Position numbers and translations under genes: made by a program
The notes under the pieces: model-generated
What the model was told of the DNA's origin: nothing
What the model saw: the letters and a program-made list of their open reading frames with translations, nothing else
The model's database searches: none
Shown: positions 13,300 through 52,241 of the stretch, in pieces
Numbering within the stretch: the stretch's first letter is position 1
Layout of the letters: every line of letters begins with the position of its first letter
NCBI GenBank assembly: GCA_964016885.1
Contig: OZ024743.1
Location: forward strand, 127,038,001 to 127,102,000
Origin: Eledone cirrhosa
Taxonomy: Eukaryota
DNA: 64,000 nucleotides
Reading direction: 5' to 3'

Positions 13300-13717
13300 A
13301 GTCAAAGACCACAAAGAAAAAAAATGCCTTCTAATAGATGTATCAATTCCCACAATGACAATATATCTTCCAAGGAAATGGAGAAACTCTCCAAATATAA
13401 AGATCTAGAGATAGAAATAACTCAAATGTGGAAAATGAAAACTGAAGCAATGCCTATAATAATAGGTGCTCTAGGAATGATAAAAAATTCACAGACAAAT
13501 ACATAGCCAAAACCCCAGGACTTACAAATATATACAGCATACAAAAGGTAGTACTACTAGGCACTGCACACATATTATGAAAAGTACTATCAATACAATA
13601 GAAATAACAATAGAAAAAACTACATTGCTCATACCCAAGGCGCACAGAGCTGTGTTCAGTAAAGCAGTAATGATGCACAATAAAAATAATATTGGAAATA
13701 ATAATAATAATAATAAT
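13300..13717 (+). mobile_element. 3' fragment of a divergent R4/Dong-clade retrotransposon with (TAA)n tail
   Basis: RLE C-terminus EKLSKYKDLEIEI..MWKMKT...IIIGALG...QKVVLLGTAHIL; 3' UTR differs from the other copies; tail 13698-13717. Confidence 0.8.
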
Positions 13718-13718
13718 A

Positions 13719-14812
13719 TGAAACACGAAAGCATCAAAAGATCATATTCCATTACAAAAGATGCACAAAGATACAGTAATGGACTACACATTTCAGAAGT
13801 CCCATTTACTGCTGAAATGGAAAACACAGAAAAAGCAAAGCAGGTAAAAGTAACTGCAAAGAAAGAATTGCTACAGAAACTGGCTAAGAAATGGCAAGAA
13901 AAGCCTCTGTATGGAAAATACCCAGAGCGAGCTAACAATCCTGATGTTGACAAAACTTTAAACCATCAGTGGTTGGCATCCTCTGGACTGAAATCGGAGA
14001 CTGAAGGACTGATTATATCGGCACAAGATCAGTGTCTGCCAACAAAAAATTACCAAGCCAACATAATAAAAAATAGGTGCAGCCCATTATGCCGTGTATG
14101 CAAAAAACAACCAGAGACCATTGACCATATAATTTCAATGTGCAGTCCTATAGCTCCAACCGAATACCTAAACAGGTATGACAGAGCTGCACAATACATA
14201 CATTGGATAATGTGTAAGCATTTTGACCTGCCCCATCAAAAGAATTGGTGGGAGCATCAACCACCTCCCATACTTGAAAAAGATCACATCTCAATCTTGT
14301 GGAACTTTAGCATCCAAACAGACCGAAAAATAGATGCAAACAGACCTGATATAATATTGAAAGACTTTCAAAAGAGGGTATGCCTGCTAATTGATATGTC
14401 TGTTCCAATAGACAAGAATGTATCTATAAAAACATTTGAAAAATTGAGCAAGTATAAGGACCTGGAGATAGAAATTGGAAAAATGTGGAAATTGAGAACT
14501 AAAACAATACCAGTGGTTGTAGGCGCTCTGGGAATGATACCTAAGGGGTCTAATGATTACATATCGCAAATCCCAGGAAACCCGCGTATAGGAGAAATAC
14601 AAAAGATAGTACTAATGGGAACTGCCCATATACTAAGGAAGATTCTGTCAATATATGTACATCACAAGTCTAAACACTAAAGATGCATGTGTGAATATGT
14701 ATGTTCTTTCTTGAACATGGCGGACCTTGTTGTCTCTTGAGGTCACTGGTTGTGACTTGGTGATAACTCGTATGAACATAAAGCAAGATAAATGCAACTG
14801 TAATAATAATAA
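13719..14812 (+). mobile_element. 5'-truncated R4/Dong-clade non-LTR retrotransposon
   Basis: CCHC finger CRVC..ETIDHIISMC, RPD..D..K-KY restriction-like endonuclease; nearly identical to 18675-19751; (TAA)4 tail. Confidence 0.92.
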
Positions 14813-15720
14813 GGGAAGAAGACGCACGAGGTGGTAGAAGGTCATGAAATCGCTCCCGTAAGTTTTTGATTTTTAACATATTTAAATCAATTGTGAAATA
14901 ACAATTCTTAGTACAAATGTTGCATAAACCACCGAATGAAGTCCCATAAAATTTCGGATCCATATTATGTTGTTATATCGCTCAAATATTCAATTTTGTA
15001 TTATATATTTTGTATTCAAAAAAAGAAAATGGTTATAAATGGAAGAAAACACCCTCTGTCTTACACTATATAGAACAGCCAAATAACAGCAATTTCACCA
15101 ACACCAGAAACTTGATACACCACCTATCCCATCACACTAAATATAACAGCCAGATAACGGCAATTTCACCACCACCACCATCAATCCCGGCATGATAATA
15201 ATAATTACTATTATTATTGTCTCAAATTTTAACAAAATGTTTAATTCCAATTTTACGGGAATATGTCAACACAATATATAATAAACATACGAACACAAAC
15301 TCATGGATACTACATATCACAAAACTCAGTAACCACAACGCCACCGCCGCCACCACCCCATCCATCATTGCTACCACTATCCCATCGCCGCCGCCACCAC
15401 TCCTTCATTGCTACCACCACTATTCCCCTGTTAACTTGAGAGAGAAAGGGGAAGGTGGCGGTATCACTAGACAAGGGAGAGGCTAGCAAAAGATATAAAT
15501 AGATTGACTTAGTGACCTGGCCACCGGCCAAACATCAACATCAACAACTATGGGACTGCTGGCTCACCCCTTCCTCACCAACAATATAAAAAGCCCCGGC
15601 ACCACCACCGACATAGCCAACAACAATAATAGGCAACTACAGCAAAAAGTATATTATATTATTGTAATGCACTGGGTGATTGCTGGCCTTGTGCCTGGAG
15701 TGGAGACAATTATTAATAAT

Positions 15721-18700
15721 TTCATTCTTAAGCCACGCAATGCTCACATTAAGGAACCACTCATGATAATAACAATTTTAAAAAAACAACAAAAAGAAAA
15801 CCCCGTGACCAAGAAATACCGGGATGGCGGCTGGCAGGGAATAGCCGTGTCTCTAGGGAGAACGACCCCTCTAGTCTTGGTTGACACTCGTTCTAGAAGT
15901 GGTAACACGAAATGATTACCCCTTGGCGGATAAGGATAAAACGCGACAAAATAAAGTAAATGTCTAATGATAAAATCTCATACCGGATCGGCCGTCACCC
16001 GGGTAAAAATGGGCCGCGTCCCTCAGAGAGGAACCAGACTGGGGTCGAAAAATCAACTAATGGTTCAAACCTTCCCATCACTTTGGAGCTGGAGACCTCC
16101 CATAACCGGAATACTCCTACTGTTGGCCCTCCATGCTCACCACCAAGAAATCCAAAGAAAAAGAGAGAAAAATGGTCAAGGGAAGATAATAAAGAAGTCC
16201 TTGAGGCTTTCTACACTGCCATGTACTACCCATCAAATACATCGAATACAGAACAGACATATATCAACTGGGAAAAGAAACATCCCGAAAACAGAGGCTA
16301 TATTGACAGTAACAAACTAGCCAATATACAAAGAAATATTGTAAGAAAAAAGTTACTAACTGATATAGAAATTGATCAGATCAAGCTATTAGCACAAAGT
16401 CAGCGAAGGGAAAATGAAACATGAGTCAGTGAAAACGAGGTAAACAGTAAAACTTCGAACCCCAGAGTTGGGGCGGAATCACTGGCAACAGAACAAATTA
16501 AAGAAAGGATCGAAAAAGTGGAGGGAGTGCATGCTCAGGATGAAACTCCAAATGAAAATAATGAGATCGTAAATGATAAAGAAATGAATGAGAATGAACT
16601 TGCCAACTTGAAGGATGAAATTATGATCGAATGGATGAAAATGAAAGAATCTGACATGGGGAAACGAGACACCCTCCCTAAGATCCAGAACTCCAAACAG
16701 AACCAAAAGATAATACACAAGACTAACATAATTCTCAAAAACATTATCATCACAAACAAACTAAACATTACTGATTTAAAGCATCTCTATTATGCATCGG
16801 CTAAAGTCACCACTCACTTATGTGGAGTGAAGATGAAAAAACAAAGGAATTCCCACAAGAAATCTACTTGGCAAGAGAACATCAATCGCCAAATAAACCT
16901 TCTCCGATCTGACATAGAAATTTTAACAAACTATAAAGTAGGTGAACATGTTAAACAAACTAAACTTAGAAAATTGAAAAAAAAAGTACAGTATAAAATC
17001 AACATGTGACATAGACATGCTGATAGAAATAATCAAGCAAAAAGTGTCGGCCAAAGCTGCTTGTATAAGGCGCTTTGAAAAACGATCTAGATTCTATAAG
17101 GACAATAATATGTTCAAAAACAACCAAAGAAACTTCTACAGAAAAATTGGTAAGTCAACAATAACTGCTAAATCAATACCACCCAAGGAGGAAGTGCAAG
17201 AATTCTGGGAAAAGATCTGGGCCGAAGAAAAAGTTCATAACATACATGCCCCATGGATAGACAGACAAATGAAAGATACAGCTCACCTTGAGGAACAAAT
17301 ATGGGGAAAATATAACAGTTGAACAGTTGCGCTTGGCTCTAAGAAAAACCAGCAAATGGAAATCCCCAGGAAAAGACAAAATACAAAACTTTTGGATAAA
17401 TGCCTTCACAGAGTCTCATGAGCTGTTAGCCCAACTTTACAATGAAATAGTTAAGGAGCCAGAAAAGATACCATCATGGCTAGTTAACGGCATTACATTC
17501 CTGCTTCCGAAGAATGATGAGACAAACAATCCCAAAAATTACAGACCGATAACTTGCTTGACCACAATGTATAAAATTTTAACATCAGTCCTAACTGAAT
17601 ACACATATGACCACCTGATAACAAATGACCTATTTCCCATTGAGCAGAAAGGGTGTAAACGAGGCTCATATGGCTGTAAGGATCAGCTTCTGGTTAACAA
17701 AATGATACTGGAAGATTGTCATAATAGACACAGAAATCTATCGATTGCTTGGATAGATTATAAAAAAGCATTCGATAGTTTGCCACACAGTTGGATTGAA
17801 AAATGTTTAGAGATTTTCAAAATATACCCCGTTGTCAGGAGGTTTTTGTCATTCAGTATGAAGACATGGAAAACGACACTCCTTTTGAATAGTGAAACAA
17901 AATCACTGGAAGCTGGAGAAGTTAATATTAATTGTGGAATTTTTCAGGGTGACTCTTTATCACCGCTTTTATTCTGCATCGCACTTATACCATTAAGTAA
18001 AATGCTCAATGAAACAAAACATGGATATAAAGTCTATGACAAAACCATTAATCACCTGTTCTACATGGATGACCTGAAACTATTTGCAAAAAATGATGAA
18101 CAATTGCAAGGGCTATTATCCACTGTGGAGCAGTCCAGTTATGACATTAAAATGGAGTTTGGACTAGATAAATGCGCCAAAGCAACGTTCACCAGAGGAA
18201 AGCTGCTGAAGAGTTCAGACATTAATCTTGATCGGGGGAACGTGATAAGAGAACTTGATCAAGAAAAAACTTACAAATATCTAGGTGTTTGTGAAGGAGA
18301 CAGAATCAAGCACTCAACAATGAGGGAAAGGATAAGGAAGGAATGTTACCGCAGAGTAAGAGCAATCTTAAGAACGGAATTGAATGCAAGGAATAGGATC
18401 GATGCCATAAACACGCTTGCCATACCAGTAGTAACCTACAGTTACAATGTCATCAACTGGTCAAGCACAGAGATCCGTAGGCTCGATACAAAATTTCGAA
18501 AATCTTTAACCATGCACAGAATGCATCACCCTAAGGCAGATATAGATAGAATATATCTCCCTAGGAAAGAAGGAGGACATGGGTTAATCCAGTTAGACAT
18601 TGCGTTGAAAACTGCAACAATTGGATTATCTACATATCTAAGGGAATCACATGATTGGATGATCAAACTCGTTTTGAAACACGAAAGCATCAAAAGATCA

Positions 18701-19751
18701 TATTCCATTACAAAAGATGCACAAAGATACAGTAATGGACTACAAATTTCAGAAAACACAGAAAAAGCAAAGCAGGTAAAAGTAACTGCAAAGAAAGAAC
18801 TGCTACAGAAACTGGCTAAGAAATGGCAAGAAAAGCCTCTGTATGGAAAATAGCCAGAGCGAGCTAACAATCCTGATGTTGACAAAACTTTAAACCATCA
18901 GTGGTTGGCATCCTCTGGACTGAAATCGGAGACTGAAGGACTGATTATATCGGCACAAGATCAGTGTCTGCCAACAAAAAATTACCAAGCCAACATAATA
19001 AAAAATGGATGCAGCCCATTATGCCGTGTATGCAAAAAACAACCAGAGACCATTGACCATATAATTTCAATGTGCAGTCCTATAGCTCCAACCGAATACC
19101 TAAACAGGCATGACAGAGCTGCACAATACATACATTGGATAATGTGTAAGCATTTTGACCTGCCCCATCAAAAGAATTGGTGGGAGCATCAACCACCTCC
19201 CATACTTGAAAAAGATCACATCTCAATCTTGTGGAACTTTAGCATCCAAACAGACCGAAAAATAGATGCAAATAGACCTGATATAATATTGAAGGACTTT
19301 AAAAAGAGGGTATGCCTGCTAATTGATATGTCTGTTCCAATAGACAAGAATGTATCTATAAAAACATTTGAAAAATTGAGCAAGTATAAGGACCTGGAGA
19401 TAGAAATTGGAAAAATGTGGAAATTGAGAACTAAAACAATACCAGTGGTTGTAGGCGCTCTGGGAATGATACCTAAGGGGTCTAATGATTACTTATCGCA
19501 GATCCCAGGAAACCCGCGTATAGGAGAAATACAAAAGATAGTACTAATGGGAACTGCCCATATACTAAGGAAGATTCTGTCAATATAAGTACATCACAAG
19601 TCTAAACACTAAAGATGCATGTGTGAGTATGTATGTTCTTCCTTGAACAGTGGACCTTGTTGTCTCTTGAGGTCACTGGTTGTGACTTGGTGATAACTCG
19701 TATGAACATAAAGCAAGATAAATGCAACTGTAATAATAATAATAATAATAA
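15721..19751 (+). mobile_element. Near full-length R4/Dong-clade non-LTR retrotransposon; single RT-RLE ORF 15960-19588 broken by stops and frameshifts
   Basis: N-terminal KWSREDNKEVLEAFY motif; RT motifs YRPITCL, DYKKAFDS, QGDSLSP, FYMDD; CCHC finger, RHD, RPD..D..K-KY RLE; (TAA)7 tail. 5' boundary inferred. Confidence 0.92.
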
Positions 19752-22768: not shown

Positions 22769-23179
22769 TTAACAAGCAGATCCCTCTATAATTGAAGCAA
22801 TTTCTCTTGTCTCCATTTTTGAAAATTGGAATTATCACTCTTTATTGCCCCTGCTTAGGTGCCTTTCCAGAGATCCAAGCCACCCAGCACACACAAGTCA
22901 GCCAGAGAATACATTCTCTATTTAAGGTTTTTAGCATAAGTTACTCAAACAAAAAATAAAATTTAATGATCAAATTTATGAACTTGTAAAGTATAATATA
23001 AAATAAATTTCTCCATTTTCAGAACATAGCCGTTTTCGTGCAGGCTTGCATGTTTTTTACCTCCTATTGTAAAATCAGCCAAATTTTGTAATCATGTGCT
23101 CTCAAATAGTATCTTCATAATTGTAATTGATTATGAAATCTATAAATGGTCATAACTCTATGCTGAAAAGCATAGTGTC

Positions 23180-26100
23180 TGGTGGACATGAAGAACCGGA
23201 GGCTTATTGACACCACCACAAACCTCACTGTGAGAGGTATATTTACCACGCAATCCTCAGTGAGCCCTGTAATTTGCCAGTCAGAGCCTTCGCTTTACAA
23301 CTGCATTCTCCAGAAATACCCAGACATCACTCGCCCGGTATTTAAGGATAGACCTATTAAACAGTGTCACACATCATATCGAGACAAGAGGACCACCCAC
23401 AGCTGCCCGAGTAAGGAGACTGCCTCCAAACCGATTGAGAATCGCCAAACAGGAGTTTCAACACATGCTGGACCTTGGAATCATTCGCCCTTCCTCCAGC
23501 AACTGGTCTGCACCTCTACACCTTGTTCCTAAGAAAACAGAGAATGATTGGCGACCATGTGGGGATTATCGTGCACTCAACAATTCCACAGTACCCGAAA
23601 TTACCCTGTACCTCACTTGCACGACTTTTCTGCCTCTCTGCAAGACGCATGCATCTTTTCCAAGATAGATTTGGTACGAGCATATAATCAGATACCTGTG
23701 GAGCCTGCTGATATTCCGAAGACCGCAATCACGACACCGTTCGGTTTATCTGAATTCCGGCGAATGCCGTTCGGTCTGCGCAACGCTGCACAAACTTTTC
23801 GGCGGTTTATTGACACCGTGTTACGTGATCTACCTTTTGCATACGCGTATATCAACGACGAGCTAGTAGCAAGTACTTCCGAGCAAGAACAAGAGAAGCA
23901 CTTAGATCTTCTTTTCCAACGTTTGGCCGAGTACGGTATTATCCTCAACCCCAGCAAGTGCCTTCTCGGCGTTCCTTCACTGTCCTTTCTCGATCACATC
24001 ATTGATAAAGACAGCATTCATCCACTTCCTGAGAAAGTAGAAGTTATTCGCGATTTTCCCCGCACCTACATCACTTCGGAAACTGCGTGAATTCCTCGAT
24101 TTGGTGAATTTCTATAGGCGTTTCATCCCTCATTGTGCCGACGCAACCAGACTCCTCATGGACCTTCTTCGTAACCGGACTCGGAAAAACGAAGACATCA
24201 CTCTGAACGAGGAAGAACTAACATCTTTCAAAGGCCTGAGGGAAATGTTGGCAAACGCTTCCATGCTCGTTTTCCCCAGATCTGGCGCTCCTCTTTCGCT
24301 GCTAGTGGACACATCAGAGACGGGGATTGGAGGCGTTTTACAACAATATGTCGACGGCGTTTGGAAACCCTTATCCTTCTTTTCTAAGCGGCTGCAACCT
24401 GCAGCAACCAAATACAGTACGTTTGGCCGCGAACTCTTGAAACCTACCTTTCAGTTAAACATTTTTGTCACATGCTCGAAGGATCGGATTTCGTGATCTA
24501 CACGGACCATAAACCACTAGTTTATGCGTTCCGTACCAAACATTCACCGAGAGAACTCTGCCACCTGGATTTTGTCTCCCAATATTCAACTGATATTCGG
24601 CATATCAAGAGATCAGACAACGTAGCAGCCGACGCCCTGTCCCGAATCCAGCTTAACGCAATACATGTACATTCAGGCATCGACCTTCAACAGATCGCAG
24701 CTGACCAAGAGACTGACGAAGAGTTTATCAAGCTCCAAGATTCGCCATCCCTCAAGTTTCAGCAAGTTCCCATTCCTTCTTCTCCGGGACAAATTTGGTG
24801 CGACCTTTCTACCGGTCATGAACGACCGTACGTACCACAGATGCATCGTCGACAAGTTTTTTCTGCTTTACACTATTTGTCTCACCCAGGAATCCGGGCT
24901 ACACAGAAACTCATCTCTGCTCGTTTTGTGTGGACTAACATTAACAAGGACGTGCGCTACTGGTCCAGGAGCTGCATTGCCTGCCAGAAAGCCAAAGTCC
25001 ACAGACACATCAAAACTCCACTCGGCACATTCGCGCAACCTGATGCATGTTTTCATCATGTGCATATCGACATCGTCGGAACTCTACCGCCATCACAGAA
25101 CTGCACACACTTGCTCACCTGCATAGATTGATTTTCCCGTTGGCCTGAGACTTTTTCCATAAGTGATACCTCAGCGGAAACAGTCGCTAAAACTTTGGTT
25201 TTATACTGGGTATCACGTTATGGTACCACAGCGAAGATAACAACGGACAGAGGACGCCAATTTGACTCCCACCTCTTCAGGGAACTGACTCGCCTGTTAG
25301 GATGTAAACACATCTGCACGACAGCTTATCACCTGCAAGCTAATGGTCTTGTGGAAAGATTCCATCGCCAATCACTGGTTTGAATACCTGCCACTCATCC
25401 TTCTGGGCATTCGATTAAGGAGGAATTCGGACACACACCTGCAGTATTAGTGTACGACACCACCCTGGTTCTACCTGTTCAGATGGTCGCTCCCAATATA
25501 TGTCTCACCTTGCTCCTGCAAGCACCCGTCAACAGAACACGGCCACACATGTACCTTCAGACATTAATGATTGGACACACGTTTTCGTTCGAAACGACAC
25601 CATCTCAGCTCATCTTCGACCTCCATATTCTGGCCCTTACCGTGTTCTAAAAAAATATCCGAAATATTTTATTCTCGATCAAGATGATAAACAGAATTCT
25701 GTCAGCGTGGACAGATTAAAAAAAGCCATCATGGATACAGTTACAGTCTCTACACCAGAAGCTCCAACAGATTGCTGTCCCAGCAAGCCACCTGTTTCAT
25801 CTCCAGTCACGAGAAGTGGAGGACGTGTCCATTGGCCCGCCAAGTTGGCACAATATGTGAATTACCGTTAACCTCAAGTGAGTTTCTTAATCAGTCTTCT
25901 TGCAAAACATTTCCATTTTCCTTGTGTTTACTATTTCCAGTTTCAAATACAGTGAACTTTCTGCTTGAACAATTGCAATTTTTAGTGACCATGTGCTCAT
26001 GTTGTCATCGTCACGAAGAACATTATTTATTATGAACATTTTTTTTTTTTCCATATTCTGCAATATTAATTGTGTAATTGTCATAATTTTTATATACATA

Positions 26101-29536: not shown

Positions 29537-29605
29537 ATATATTTTGTCTGATGAAAACGTACTTAAACAACATAGTACCTTTGAAATATGTATAATAAAA
29601 TATAT
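29537..29605 (+). ncRNA. Minimal type I hammerhead ribozyme motif
   Basis: Stem I ATATATTTTGT/ATAAAATATAT, CTGATGA, stem II AAACGTACT/AGTACCTTT, GAAA-T-ATGT-A-TA (AUA site). Confidence 0.7.
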
Positions 29606-37912: not shown

Positions 37913-39089
37913 ATCTGTAAGAGATGCGGTCCAGTGGCTGAAGTAAGAAACCAGGCCGTGGTAATGTTTTGTAGTTACATTTTGGAATGTTTACCTTAGT
38001 GAGGTCAAGCTGCAAGAGAATTAGTTTATTAAAAAGAAGCGGGAATTTATCCATTTGGGTGGAAGTTGAGATACATATCCTTACGCTGATAGTGATTGGC
38101 TTAACTCAGCCAAACAATGTACGGAAAGGGTATCAATGCGCCAAAGGAAAGTAGCTTGCTACAAATGCTTGGTAGAGTGGCTTACTCTAAACTAGATATT
38201 TGTCTGGCAGTAGTTTTGTTAGGAAGAGATCATTGCTGGTACCCTATCTGGGCATAAATCTAAACTGCATTTCATCTTAGCTAATTCTCTTCCTAATCAG
38301 TTGTATTATCATTCTATCAGTAACTTTCATAACTCTGTTCATCAATTTGATGCCTCTTTGGTTAATTGGACTGGGCAACATGCTGTATCCTTGAGCAAGA
38401 CACTTCATTTCAGGTTGCTCCAGTTCACTCTTCTGAAAATAATTAGTACCAGCAGCAGTCTTGTATTCTCATTTGCTTGAACCTCATGAAACCAGGATAA
38501 ATACTGACCTGATGAGCCTCTACAGTTGAGAGAGACAGACATTGCCTATAACACTTTCCTGTGCTACTTGATTGAATATGTGAGTGACTAGCACATTATA
38601 TATTTTCAGCATCTCAGCAACTATCCTTGATGGTTCAACTGTTTTCTCTGCTTTCATCTTCTTAATCTTGCTTTCAGCTCTATGGCTGTTTACATCAATG
38701 GATACTCTGTTGGATTTGCTTGACATAGACCTTTCCCCTCTCAACTTCATTGTAATAGTATTTCTGTTCCTCTTTAATTTTGCCTTCATTGAGGGCAAGT
38801 CTACCACTCATTCTGTACACACTTCTTTCCAACAACATCTCATTGCCCTCCAATGAGACTGCCTTGCAATCCTGTACACACATCATCATCAGGACTGCTG
38901 CTGCCACTGCCACCACCATCACCCCCCCCCCTCGATGTGACAAATCTTCTCTATAATTTTTAACATGGTTTCTAGAGCTGGATGCCCTTCCTAAATCCAA
39001 ACCACTTTACAGAGTGTACTGGGTGCACTTCATTGTATAGTCTATTGAGATATCATATTTTATATTTTCTTGTTGTTTTTAGGTCAATA

Positions 39090-39576
39090 ATGAAGATATT
39101 TGGATTTGAATTTGCTCCAATTTTCATTCCCTTTGAAAGACGTATCCAGACAGCCTGTGTATTCCAATGGACTCTATGTTTCTTATGTATGGGTTTTGGC
39201 AGCCTTGGTCTCTTCATCTACCTGCTGTTCACTCAATACTATTACATATCTTTAGCATACTTCATATGGTACGTCTATGACTATAACACATGTGAACATG
39301 GAGGACGCCGTCTTTTATGGCAATTCAACAATCCTGTTTGGAAATACTTTGCTGATTATTTTCCTATAAAGCTCATCAAAATGGCAGAGCTTGATCCATC
39401 CAAGAACTACATTGCTGGTTACCATCCACATGGAATCATGAGTGCTGGTGCATTTGCTAATTTTGCAACAAATGCAACAGGATTCAACAACATTTTCCCA
39501 AAAATGCATCAGTATTTGTGTATACTGACAGGACAGTTTCATTTTCCATTCTTCAGAGAGTATTTAATGAGTTCTG
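39090..39576 (+). CDS. MOGAT2: MOGAT/DGAT2-family acyltransferase, first coding exon
   Basis: Acceptor TTTTAG at 39082, ATG 39090; FAP..IP.ERR.QT, YF.DYFP, YHPHG active-site motif; donor G|GTGAG, phase 1. Symbol is family-level (MOGAT2-like). Confidence 0.9.
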
Positions 39577-40059
39577 GTGAGTTCTTTAACTTTTTATCTT
39601 TTTTTAAATACATCAAAAAGAAAAAGAGCTGATTGTTAGATCAGACCAAGGAAAGAATGTTTCTATTTGTTTTTCCATTGCTGATATTATCTGCCAATCA
39701 CAACTCCTGACAGGAGAAAAAATTGATTATCTGATTGGACCAAGGAAACAATATTTCCATTGCTGATATGCTTTACCAAGCAGAAAAAAGAAAGTAGCTG
39801 GTCATTAGATCAGACCAAAGAAACATTGTTTCTATCAGGCTTTAATTGTAAGAGTTTAGAGCAAAATGCCTTGCAGTATTTCATTTGACTTTTTACAATC
39901 TGTCTTCAAATTCCAGTGTGATCTATCAATGAAAGACTTAATCTGGTCTCTGGTTTGAGGACACCTTACTCCTTCCCATCCATCTCAGAGATCCTGCAAA
40001 GTGTTAGAGACACTGCCTTTCCCCTCTATGAATAAACCACTAACCCCCCCCCCCTCCTC

Positions 40060-46860: not shown

Positions 46861-47096
46861 ATAAATGTCTTATGCTATACCACCCCTATGACCATTTAGC
46901 TGATAAATGGGAATTTTTCTCTCCAACCTCACCAATAATACTGACTTACATTGCTCTCTCTTTTTTCGCTCTCTCTTCTATCTTACATTCATTCTCTCTC
47001 CCTCTCTCCTTTCTCATATTCAGTCACTCTCCCTCCTCCCCTCTCTTTCTAATTCACTTACCCACTCTCTTTCACCTTTTTTCCTCCTGTTTCTAG

Positions 47097-47251
47097 TTGG
47101 CAAACCTATTGACGTTCCACTGATCGAGAATCCCACTAAACAGCAGATTGAAGAACTGCATCAGATATATTTGAACAGCCTCTATGAACTTTTCGAGGAA
47201 TATAAGGCCAAATATGGCATTGATGAGATGAAACACTTGATCTTTCACTAA
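47097..47251 (+). CDS. MOGAT2: MOGAT/DGAT2-family acyltransferase, last coding exon (155 nt)
   Basis: Long pyrimidine tract plus TAG acceptor; VGKPI, H..Y...L..LFEEYK.KYG, TAA stop; spliced CDS totals 1017 nt (338 aa). Confidence 0.92.
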
Positions 47252-48484: not shown

Positions 48485-49737
48485 GTGTCTAACGTTTTTC
48501 GAAATATTTACTTATGCGTTCACAGATTGATTTTTTTAGTTTCAGAAGATCCCATTAAGGGTGAAAGCAGCGATTCTTTGCTTAAACTTTAATCTATTAT
48601 TTTAATATATTTATATATATATATTTAAAAATAAGAGGTGTGAGACACGAGTTGTGATATGTTAGTAAAAAGGAAAAGAAAATGCTGACAAATTTTTCCC
48701 AGTGAAAAATAGTTTAATTAGGAATAAGTATAAATTAGTAATAAGTTAGTATTCAGTTTTAGTTTTAAGTTTTTACCGGTTGCGCATTTCTTATGCTTTT
48801 CAAAAATAATTTTGAGATAGAGTGTTTGGGATTTTTGCTCTAATCTGATCAGTTTTTGAAATTCTTCCTGTTTTATGTGAAAAAAGTGGCTTGGGAGGTA
48901 TTAAAATTTGGTTGGTTGTTGAATGTCACGTGAATAAGCACTATAAATTTCGTGCCAATTTGTGTTGCAAAAATTCTTGTAGTCAAACAATTTTGATTGG
49001 TCGGTAGAAGTCACGTGAATGTTTAAATTGATTTTAGCGCGAACTGGTTTCGCGCCAAATATAGGTTTGTCTAAGAGTGTCCTTTTCCGCTTGATTGCAG
49101 TCATGTTGAGAGGTCAACAGTTCAGGTGCCTATTAAGACAAATATGTGTGTGTGTGTGTGTGTGTGTAGCAAAGTGGTTCATTGTTGTGATAATGGAAAT
49201 GAATTGGTCAGTAGGAATGTGTGTGTACATGTGTGTGTGTGTGTGTGAGGGGGGTTATTTTAACATGTTGAAACATATTTTTCAGCTCTTGTCTTATACG
49301 GAGAAGTGTGTGTGTGTGTGTGTCTGTCTGTATGTTAGTGTGCGCATGTGCAAGCGTGTGTGTGGATGGACCAGTATTTTTGTGGTACTGCTAAAAATGG
49401 CGTACATTATTTGATATTTTCAGTCATTTGCAAAAACGATTCTCTTAAAAGAACATCAATAACATCAATAACAAAAGAGGTGAAATGATGTATAGTATTG
49501 TCATAACAACAAGGCGTGTGTGAGTCCAGATTGTACGTACTGCAAGGGGAATCCATTAGGCCCTGCCGTATGGGATACTTGTGTACAAATATGTATGCAC
49601 CCATCAATGTGCAATGCATGTGTGCATATGTGTATGTGTGCGTGTCGGCACGTGTATATCTATAAACATCAAAAGGTATGAGAATTTGTGTATATTTGTG
49701 TTGCACCATAGAATATGTGTGTTTACGTATATCATTG

Positions 49738-50407
49738 TTAGAATTGGAGCTCTGAAATAGCAATATATATATGGATGTATATATAATGTATTTTGCAATA
49801 CACTTTATGCTTAATTAAAAGCATTTTGAAGACCATAAGCTATTGTTTTAAAGTAGTGACAAATTCACTCACTTTGATCTCAGCAAACAGGGGAGATAAG
49901 CCGACAAGACTTGTTTCGCTTTGGTTGAAGCTTATCAAGGCCAACTACCCCACCTGTTTACTGAGATCATTGATGTTATATTCTTATAGAAATCTAGTAA
50001 ATAATCAGGAGCTGATTATGCAGAGCGGTTGTTGGTCAGGCAGAAATTAAAAATTAGAATTGGAGCTCTGAAATAGCAATATATATATGGATGTATATAT
50101 AATGTATTTTGCAATACACTTTATGCTTAATTAAAAGCATTTTGAAGACCGTAAGCTATTGTTTTAAAGTAGTGACAAATTCACTCACTTTGATGCTTTT
50201 AATTAAGCATAAAGTGTATTGCAAAATACATTATATATACATCCATATATATATTGCTATTTCAGAGCTCCAATTCTAATTTTTAATTTCTGCCTGACCA
50301 ACAACTGCTCTGCATAATCAGCTCCTGATTATTTACTAGATTTCTATAAGAATATAACATCAATGATCTCAGTAAACAGGTGGGGTAGTTGGCCTTGATA
50401 AGCTTCA
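49738..50407 (-). mobile_element. Retrozyme-like non-coding element: ~1.45 tandem copies of a 316-bp unit plus 215-bp inversion
   Basis: Unit restarts at 49738 and 50054; 50193-50407 is the reverse complement of 49926-50140; contains a hammerhead. Confidence 0.75.
49875..49969 (-). ncRNA. Type I hammerhead ribozyme, U3-A8 core variant, long stem I
   Basis: Minus strand TGATCTCAGTAAACAGGTGGGGTAGTT GGCC TTGATAA GCTT-CAACCA-AAGC GAAA CAA-GTC-TTG TC GGCT TATCTCCCCTGTTTGCTGAGATCA (GUC site). Confidence 0.75.
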
Positions 50408-51617
50408 TCCATATGTCATTGTGTTTATATGTGGATAGAAAAGTATGTAGGATGTATGCTGATGTAGGTATGTATGTCAATGTGTGTATGTTGTGGGTTC
50501 GTCTTAGACGGGGTCCATATTTGTTAATAAAATGAGATTCCTTGGTGATGTGCTGGGTGTGGGTGGCATTATCTTTAAATTTATAGAGGGGAAAGATTCT
50601 AAAGTTGGGATGACATTGGGCGGCTCAATGTGTTCACTCAGTGCTATTTTTCTGTATTCCCGTATTTTGATTTGGGATCTATGGACAGTCATGCGTTGGC
50701 AGAGGCTGTTTTTGTCTGTATTGTTCTCGACAACCTGAGCAAGTTAATACATATATTAGGTTTTCTGATGCGCATATAAAATTGTGTTTACTATAAAACT
50801 GGCACGAAAACATCGAGAAACTTAAAGAATTTCACACCCTTTTAAATGGGCTCAAGTCGAATATTAATTTTACAATGGAATACAGCCAACAACAACTCCC
50901 CTTCATCGATATCCTCATTAAGATTCATAACAAAAAAATAGAAATAGACATATACTACAAGCCCACAGACTCCAAGCAATATCTTCCTTTCAATTCATGC
51001 CACCCTAGACACGTTAAAATTAATATTCCCTACAACTTAGCCAAGAGAATCTGTACTATATATTCCAATAAAAACACCTGTTACTTACGTCTACAAGAAC
51101 TAAAGGACACACTCATAAGCAGGGACTACCCTGCATCACTAATTGACAATGGAATCCAATGTGACCTAAAACTCAGTACCGAGGACCTTAGACACCCTAA
51201 AGTTAATCAACCAAAACTAAAAGCTCTTCCATACATCTCCACACACAACACCCTCAACAATGAGGCCTTTGACACCATCCTCCAGAACATCCCTGTATTA
51301 AAAAAGGACCATAGAATGAACCAAATCCTAACACATGAAAAACATCTTAACACATGCCAAAGTACTGCCAACCACAACAACAAAACCCACAGTAAAAAAA
51401 TGCGATAGACCCAACTGTGGCATTTGCATCAACCTAATAGAGGGTTCGGAATTCTATTTCAAACAAGGACAATGTTTTATAGTAAAACACAATTTCACAT
51501 GCGCATCAGAAAACCTAATATATGTATTAAGCACTCTATCTCAAAATTATTTTTGAAAAGCATAAGAAATGCGCAAACAGTAAAAACTTAAAACTGAAAC
51601 TGAATACTAACTAATAC

Positions 51618-51687
51618 TTTGTCTGAAGAGAGTGTGTAAGGTGGTTATTATATAACTACCGTACATCTTCGAAATACCTATAACAAA
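51618..51687 (+). ncRNA. Minimal type I hammerhead ribozyme motif in Penelope pLTR
   Basis: TTTGT CTGAAGA long stem II (GGTGGTTA/TAACTACC core) GAAA T-ACCT-A TA ACAAA, followed by AATAAA. Confidence 0.72.
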
Positions 51688-52241
51688 TAAAATAAAGATG
51701 TACAGATAAAACCATCTCTCTTATTTATTATATATATATATATATATAAATCAGAATGGATGCAGTAAAAATCAGTTAGACCATTACTCACCAGAGTACT
51801 TGATACTTGAGGTAAAAATCCAGGACCCCGACGGCTGATCAGATCTAGCTGTTGGAATGGCAGGAACTGAGCTGAAGGGGTCCCGAATTTTTTCATATAT
51901 GTGTGTGTGTGTGTGTTTATATACACCCCCACATACATACACACACACAAGCTAACAAGAGAACCTTAACCCTTCTTTTTCTTCTTGTTATTTCTTTGAA
52001 GCAAGCACAATGATCATCTAACAGCTTTTCACCTCTCCACACAGCTCTTTGTATTTTCATTGAAGTCTACAAGGTTGTTTGAGCTGTATGGGTTGGGTAG
52101 CTTCATAGTCTGGTTTGCTTCTTCACATTCACAGGTGGCTGAGTTATCCAGTCCTTTAACCCCATCTAACCTAAGCAGCTTTTGATTACACTCTGTGTAA
52201 ACTCAAATGAACCCTTTCGAAAGAGATATATTACCAATTCA

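Follow-up and report, generated by a model that had tools for sequence, protein, structure and literature searches.

Retrozymes are known from many animal phyla, the molluscs included, and the non-LTR form, with units of 170–400 nt, occurs together with RNA circles in coral, mussel and axolotl (PMC7229834). A 2020 review states that the sequence of these elements gives no clue to the enzyme that moves them (PMC7761336), and a Penelope origin has been argued from their distribution and phylogeny (bioRxiv 10.64898/2026.07.22.740005). Insertions of Penelope-like elements have a pattern of their own, a partial tandem with a head-to-head inverted copy and an 8–10-bp duplication of the target (PMC3846280, PMC8557442). 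Hammerheads in which the Watson-Crick pair between core positions 3 and 8 is U-A are found in ∼1,300 minimal, Penelope-linked motifs of Schistosoma (PMC4209133) and naturally in microbes and phages, and are reported to be active in vitro (Perreault et al. 2011, PMC3088659).

The window (the whole stretch of 64,000 nt that was analysed) carries at 49738–50411 one insertion built from a 316-nt unit with such a core (Table 1). Like the metazoan non-LTR retrozymes (Cervera and de la Pena 2020, PMC7229834, e.g., the 350–390-bp Mytilus units; Li, Clavereau and Pollet 2026, bioRxiv 10.64898/2026.07.22.740005), the unit has a type I hammerhead in a low-GC, non-coding tandem with a 170–400-nt period, a duplication of more than 4 bp and co-occurring Penelope-like elements. 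It differs from them in having U3-A8 where theirs is C3-G8, a 27-bp stem I and a probable cephalopod host; moreover, this locus holds a single complete ribozyme, and its cleavage and circles are predicted ones. With the Cercyon hammerheads of Schistosoma mansoni (Cervera and de la Pena 2014, PMC4209133) it shares U3-A8, the type I arrangement, the Penelope link and predicted dimeric cleavage, but those motifs are minimal and mostly single, with a long helix II, a short helix I and no helix III, whereas the present hammerhead is full-size, has a 4-bp helix II, a very long helix I and a 4–5-bp palindromic helix III, and belongs to a unit that closes at 316 nt. The motifs of Perreault et al. (2011; PMC3088659) have the identical compensatory core pair and lie singly between genes. 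Finally, the insert resembles Penelope insertions (Arkhipova et al. 2013, PMC3846280; Craig et al. 2021, PMC8557442) in its partial tandem, inverted copy, duplication length and AT-rich target; unlike them it has no reverse transcriptase (RT)-endonuclease ORF, its inverted copy ends in loop II and not at a shared terminus, and no 30–40-nt tail was identified.

Table 1. Features of the insert, its hammerhead and the adjacent Penelope-like element (positions in the window).
Feature	Position	Strand	Remarks
Target-site duplication, left copy	49728..49737	.	10 bp (11 bp with the shared T at 49738/50422)
316-nt unit, complete, circularly permuted, non-coding	49738..50053	-	Head-to-tail joint 50053 to 49738 in X1, X7
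Type I hammerhead motif	49875..49969	-	Descriptor match, folding, Rfam HH9 match
Stem I	49969-49939 with 49902-49875	-	27 pairs, 3-nt bulge, one mismatch
Variant core UUGAUAA	49932..49938	-	U3 at 49938, A8 at 49933
Stem II	49931-49918	-	4 bp, 6-nt loop
GAAA	49917-49914	-	
Stem III, palindromic	49914-49904	-	
GUC, predicted cut	between 49903 and 49902	-	
Second copy, 5'-truncated	50054..50194	-	141 nt, 1 difference from unit
Head-to-head inverted copy	50193..50411	+	219 nt, spans unit joint, ends in loop II
5' half of second hammerhead, in inverted copy	50364-50411		UUGAUAA at 50395-50401
Target-site duplication, right copy	50412..50421	.	9/10 identical to left copy
GIY-YIG endonuclease, broken C-terminal part, Neptune-type Penelope-like element	50505..50798	-	tblastn P0002, P0003, P0005, E 1e-7 to 2e-11
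Broken RT C-terminus, CX4CXXC linker, endonuclease start, same element (inverted part)	50800..51532	+	
Canonical C3-G8 hammerhead, long stem II, beside Penelope fragment	51618..51690	+	Core at 51623

The insertion consists of a direct head-to-tail part, which amounts to 1.45 copies of the unit (457/316) and has its sense 3' end at 49738, followed by the head-to-head inverted part. This is the arrangement that an earlier note on this DNA had described, with the refinement that the inverted copy, the reverse complement of 49922–50140 with two differences, extends over 219 nt (215 nt to the last mismatch). Two nucleotides at the inversion junction are common to the direct part and the inverted copy, and the truncated second copy starts 4 nt in from the foot of stem I. 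The flanking target-site duplication, absent from the earlier note, is the sole match of such quality among 1,246 flank positions; eight occur among 63,990 window-wide. Contigs from two public sequencing runs, X7 and X12, join the left flank to the right flank with a single copy of the duplication kept, and are identical to 50423–50452 at 29 and 28 of 30 letters, respectively. These empty sites may be paralogous, the flank itself being probably repeated; paralogous or not, they define the edges, and the insert is thus bounded at 49738 and 50411. A 10–11-bp duplication with an empty site in both runs is well above the 4 bp that a retrozyme should exceed, and together with the partial tandem and the adjacent inverted 5' copy it gives the insert the anatomy of a Penelope-type insertion, in keeping with the Penelope link that had been proposed. 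The insert does not contain the RT plus GIY-YIG ORF of an autonomous Penelope-like element, fragments of which lie outside the duplication bounds, and no poly(A) or simple-repeat tail is present at it. With 33.9% G+C and no Met-initiated frame longer than 32 amino acids, the unit agrees with the ∼170–400-nt monomers of less than 50% G+C and no protein-coding frame that characterize retrozymes. A scan for tRNA genes between 48500 and 52000 found none, and miRNA matches in the Rfam search reflect the inversion hairpin and microsatellites.

The motif on the minus strand has the three helices, conserved core, ends in helix I and NUH cut site of a type I hammerhead, its 3-8 pair being U-A. Stem I is interrupted by a 3-nt bulge, and loop II, of 6 nt, resembles that of Rfam HH9. 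It is the only U3-A8 match in the window. Shuffled windows gave no match in 100 with the observed stem lengths, 2 in 100 when stem II was allowed to be 3 bp and stem III 2 bp, and 22 in 200 with a looser U3-A8 descriptor. Rfam HH9 has a gathering score of 52 and gives the motif only 24.6 bits (E = 0.001), and the whole window has no match at Rfam gathering scores. Because of the U3-A8 core and this low score, CUGANGA descriptors and Rfam thresholds both pass over the unit, as the earlier note had expected. Only one complete hammerhead is present at 49738–50411 (with the duplication bounds as its limits); the UUGAUAA that the note had pointed to in the inverted copy is indeed there, but it is a product of the same insertion event and so is not independent evidence.

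Four of 24 runs (X1, X7, X12 and X16) were compared with one unit plus 88 nt of flank, and 43 contigs of X1, seven of X7 and four of X12 match; X16 is a Hi-C run in which no reads matched from 1,938 million letters, and it is no test of presence. The X1 contigs fall into identity bins of 99+, 95–99, 90–95 and <90 as 6, 6, 25 and 6, and although contig depth yields no copy number, these four bins and a copy at another locus in X7 make the unit multi-copy. The expectation of a multi-copy, non-coding mobile family thus holds, and a single-copy unit, which would have spoken against it, is not what the runs contain. Just 0.03 of the matched sequence in X1 continues into unlike sequence. The head-to-tail joint, a 316-nt step back from 50053 to 49738, is present in X1 and X7; at 49738 in X1 two contigs with a summed depth of 64 of ∼65 lead straight back into the end of the unit itself, and a second X1 contig has a diverged form of the same joint as its loose end. 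In record 14 of X7, where the flanks are unrelated, the unit makes one full round and 6 nt more, its ends falling at 49874 and 49879, so that the period is 316 nt at both loci and the permutation point is different. The contigs of X1 and X7 display these joints and are too short to span two complete motifs. Two copies clearly have their 5' boundary at the foot of stem I, that of the window (equivalent to 49878) and X7 record 14 (49879); a third, in X12 (49879), may belong to a diverged subfamily and was left out of the count. A depth peak at 49762–49803 arises from short AT-rich contigs and was disregarded. The 15 matching runs listed include no RNA run and carry 12 organism codes, and these codes were not accepted as a host range since the X7 and X12 contigs are short, have depths of 2–7 and may be trace DNA.

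No letter other than U3 or A8 was seen at 49938 or 49933 in X1 (depth ∼53), X7 or X12, and a diverged X1 loose end likewise retains the core. Variants occur at 31 of the 316 sites of the unit and at none of the 13 core sites, a difference that is not significant alone (P = 0.25). Nine variant calls affect paired positions: four keep the pair singly, three break it singly, and two are mutually compensating. The last two are 49911 and 49907 in helix III, swapped on both sides in one X7 contig. Helix III was read by hand in four versions of 11–13 nt, that of the window and three from the runs (two of the three variant contigs having depth <5), and in all four self-complementarity extends to within a single base of the centre. 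Loose ends at 49874–49906 in X1, X7 and X12 suggest diverged subfamilies in which stem I, stem II and helix III differ, the sequence of these ends stopping short of core positions 3 and 8; the one behind 49906 has an altered stem II with its two visible pairs intact. Since positions 3 and 8 are invariant while helix III varies and yet stays palindromic, U3-A8 is, as far as the related copies seen can tell, the state of the family and not the mere decay that the earlier note had allowed for.

The 95-nt motif and the unit both fold more stably than expected (z = −8.5 and −6.4, respectively), but in the circular fold of the unit only 56% of the bases are paired. The earlier note's complete type I hammerhead on the minus strand thus stands, but the claim that the unit folds into it must be qualified: for the monomer, the predicted minimum-energy structure is another one, which lies 6.6 kcal/mol lower and has the first bases of the core paired with the 5' strand of helix III. 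For a double hammerhead with swapped halves the distance from the two-strand minimum is 1.4 kcal/mol per ribozyme, and because of this smaller gap the dimer is predicted to be more competent than the monomer, with cleavage expected mainly in multimers. A canonical-pair control gives gaps of 4.1 kcal/mol for the monomer and 0.4 kcal/mol for the double form. Type I motifs whose palindromic helix III is weak are known to cleave as dimers or multimers (PMC4209133, PMC7761336, PMC6765202). A role for the inhibitory monomer fold as a conserved switch was considered and rejected, as the helix III bases that it needs are kept in just one of three variant versions and the canonical-pair control misfolds too.

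The insert lies ∼80 nt 3' of the Penelope ORF at 50505–50798, and its direct copies are in the same orientation. Full-length relatives of this neighbouring element have RT and GIY-YIG domains, and its assignment to Neptune rests on the CX4CXXC linker pattern tied to that clade (PMC8557442). Apart from AT-rich stretches the unit does not match the element, and with no sequence in common the neighbour was set aside as its parent: it is the target and not evidently the source. The canonical hammerhead at 51618–51690 also has no sequence relation to the unit. The Penelope element that received the insert (48741–51700) is itself rearranged, with the RT on the plus and most of the endonuclease on the minus strand, a 46-nt inverted duplication (50744–50789/51485–51530) and 87-nt inverted repeats (48741–48827/51529–51615). 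Two further canonical C3-G8 hammerheads, at 29548 (+) and 29853 (−), face each other ∼300 bp apart; they have long stems II and palindromic helices III and resemble the opposite-strand pairs described for truncated Penelope elements. Long-stem-II canonical motifs thus number three in the window (29548, 29853 and 51623), compared with one in 200 shuffled windows. Elsewhere the window contains exons of a DGAT2/MOGAT-type acyltransferase at 38976–39632 and 46907–47251 (+; the second assigned by translation only), the exon near ∼39,100 being 88% identical to an Argonauta hians protein and at most 64% identical to those of named non-cephalopods, so that the host is probably an octopod. A LINE-type element at 13484–19588 (+) has an RT and a C-terminus that looks like a restriction-like endonuclease in several broken frames, and its 3' part is duplicated over 1.1 kb (13719–14812/18675–19742). 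Broken Ty3/gypsy-like pol fragments in several frames occupy 23176–25871 (+; RT, RNase H and integrase-like by eye), and a tandem repeat with a 56-nt period lies at the window start (1–440).

It seems reasonably likely that the insert is one copy of a multi-copy, non-coding, 316-nt family of U3-A8 hammerhead elements, a probable octopod non-LTR retrozyme that is predicted to cleave itself mainly as a dimer and to form 316-nt circles, and that it was placed here by a Penelope-type insertion. The fuller version is more tentative and perhaps somewhat doubtful: a cephalopod retrozyme family with U3-A8 fixed in an active full-size hammerhead, 316-nt circles that are themselves copied in the Penelope manner, and a class that CUGANGA surveys have missed. 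In such a cycle, tandem source loci would be transcribed, the palindromic helix III would let two adjacent hammerheads exchange halves and cleave at GUC, and the released monomers would be ligated into 316-nt circles. A Penelope-type RT/endonuclease would then nick AT-rich DNA and prime internally, as has been shown for one Penelope element (PMC11167929), on a circle or an uncut multimer, in this case 165 nt downstream of the cut site. Reverse transcription would proceed through more than one unit until it stalls at the foot of the 27-bp stem I, and the insert would be finished by a second priming in inverted orientation. Read as twin priming, the direct part, the inverted part and a 43-nt gap between them, which includes a cut site, require a 719-nt template, and this could be supplied by a linear multimer or by a circle. 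The earlier note had proposed a circular template from an insert that is circularly permuted and longer than one unit, but a linear multimer explains this insert equally well. With only one complete ribozyme the locus is an offspring copy that would release no monomer alone, and it would fail the two-motif rule given for active retrozymes (bioRxiv 10.64898/2026.07.22.740005). Caution is in order about ribozyme activity because eight of nine Xenopus retrozyme dimers did not cleave in vitro (bioRxiv 10.64898/2026.07.22.740005) and the ribozyme of an anole Penelope element requires protein and is dispensable for insertion (PMC11167929).

These same precedents favour a different account of the template, which we regard as possible though rather unlikely: the repeat would be the same non-autonomous, Penelope-mobilised one, but its ribozyme would be slow or protein-dependent, no circles would form, and twin priming would copy a linear tandem transcript that is left uncut and spans at least 2.3 units. 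The insert does read through an intact hammerhead, its parts and the gap do add up to a linear template, and the monomer is predicted to misfold. On the other hand, two loci with one period and different permutation points fit a circle without further assumptions, helix III covaries, which implies that the catalytic fold is under selection, and circles were found in all three animals tested (PMC7229834). Alternatively, an unseen autonomous Penelope-like element might have the unit as its pseudo-LTR, the insert being a heavily 5'-truncated copy of that element. Penelope pseudo-LTRs with U3-A8 hammerheads are known (PMC4209133), among 57 Xenopus retrozyme families 24 correspond to known elements, almost always to Penelope termini (bioRxiv 10.64898/2026.07.22.740005), and the insertion pattern would be identical. 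We consider this improbable, given that the unit closes head to tail on itself and has no ORF, that nearly all the X1 depth at 49738 continues into the unit and so little of the matched sequence into anything unlike it, and that a full-size hammerhead with a short stem II and a long stem I is not of the kind seen in the long-stem-II Penelope motifs of the window.

Still less probable is movement of the retrozyme-like repeat by a LINE and not a Penelope element, the inversion being the outcome of ordinary LINE twin priming. That process yields inversions, microhomology and duplications, and other LINE-type RT fragments do lie in the window. But the insert lacks a poly(A) or simple-repeat tail, its 3' end falls inside the unit and differs by locus (49738 here and 49874 in X7 record 14), which fits internal priming, and it adjoins a Penelope ORF, such elements tending to insert in or beside each other (PMC6765202). 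Lastly, the sub-threshold Rfam score and the 22 matches of the loose descriptor in 200 shuffles could be taken to mean a chance or decayed motif in locally duplicated non-coding sequence. The absence of matches with the observed stems in 100 shuffles and the folding z-score of the motif speak against this, and the run contigs largely refute it with the empty site, the multi-copy family and the helix covariation, so that it is very improbable indeed.

A pattern scan of metagenomes for U3-A8 hammerheads gave 64 matches, of which 13 (∼9 distinct) are well paired; the 13 are all outside tandem repeats, no sequence among the 64 resembles the unit, and the same scan of viral contigs found no loci. 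The well-paired ones are L041, L043, L049, L024, L032, L035, L014, L054, L009, L023, L055, L061 and L064, and in L041 and L043 helix III is 12 nt and perfectly palindromic. A literature search that took in few subscription papers, and neither Repbase nor the supplement of PMC7229834, found no cephalopod retrozyme and no U3-A8 retrozyme. The core variant itself and this kind of element are already published; what appears new, within that search, is U3-A8 in a retrozyme and a retrozyme in a probable cephalopod. The insert adds evidence on the mobilising enzyme at the level of an individual insertion, in the form of an empty site, a target duplication and an inverted-copy pattern. The unit is also a small natural system in which U3-A8 activity, and control by the monomer as against the dimer state, could be tested, and it indicates that descriptors written for C3-G8, or Rfam thresholds, can overlook whole families when retrozymes are counted.
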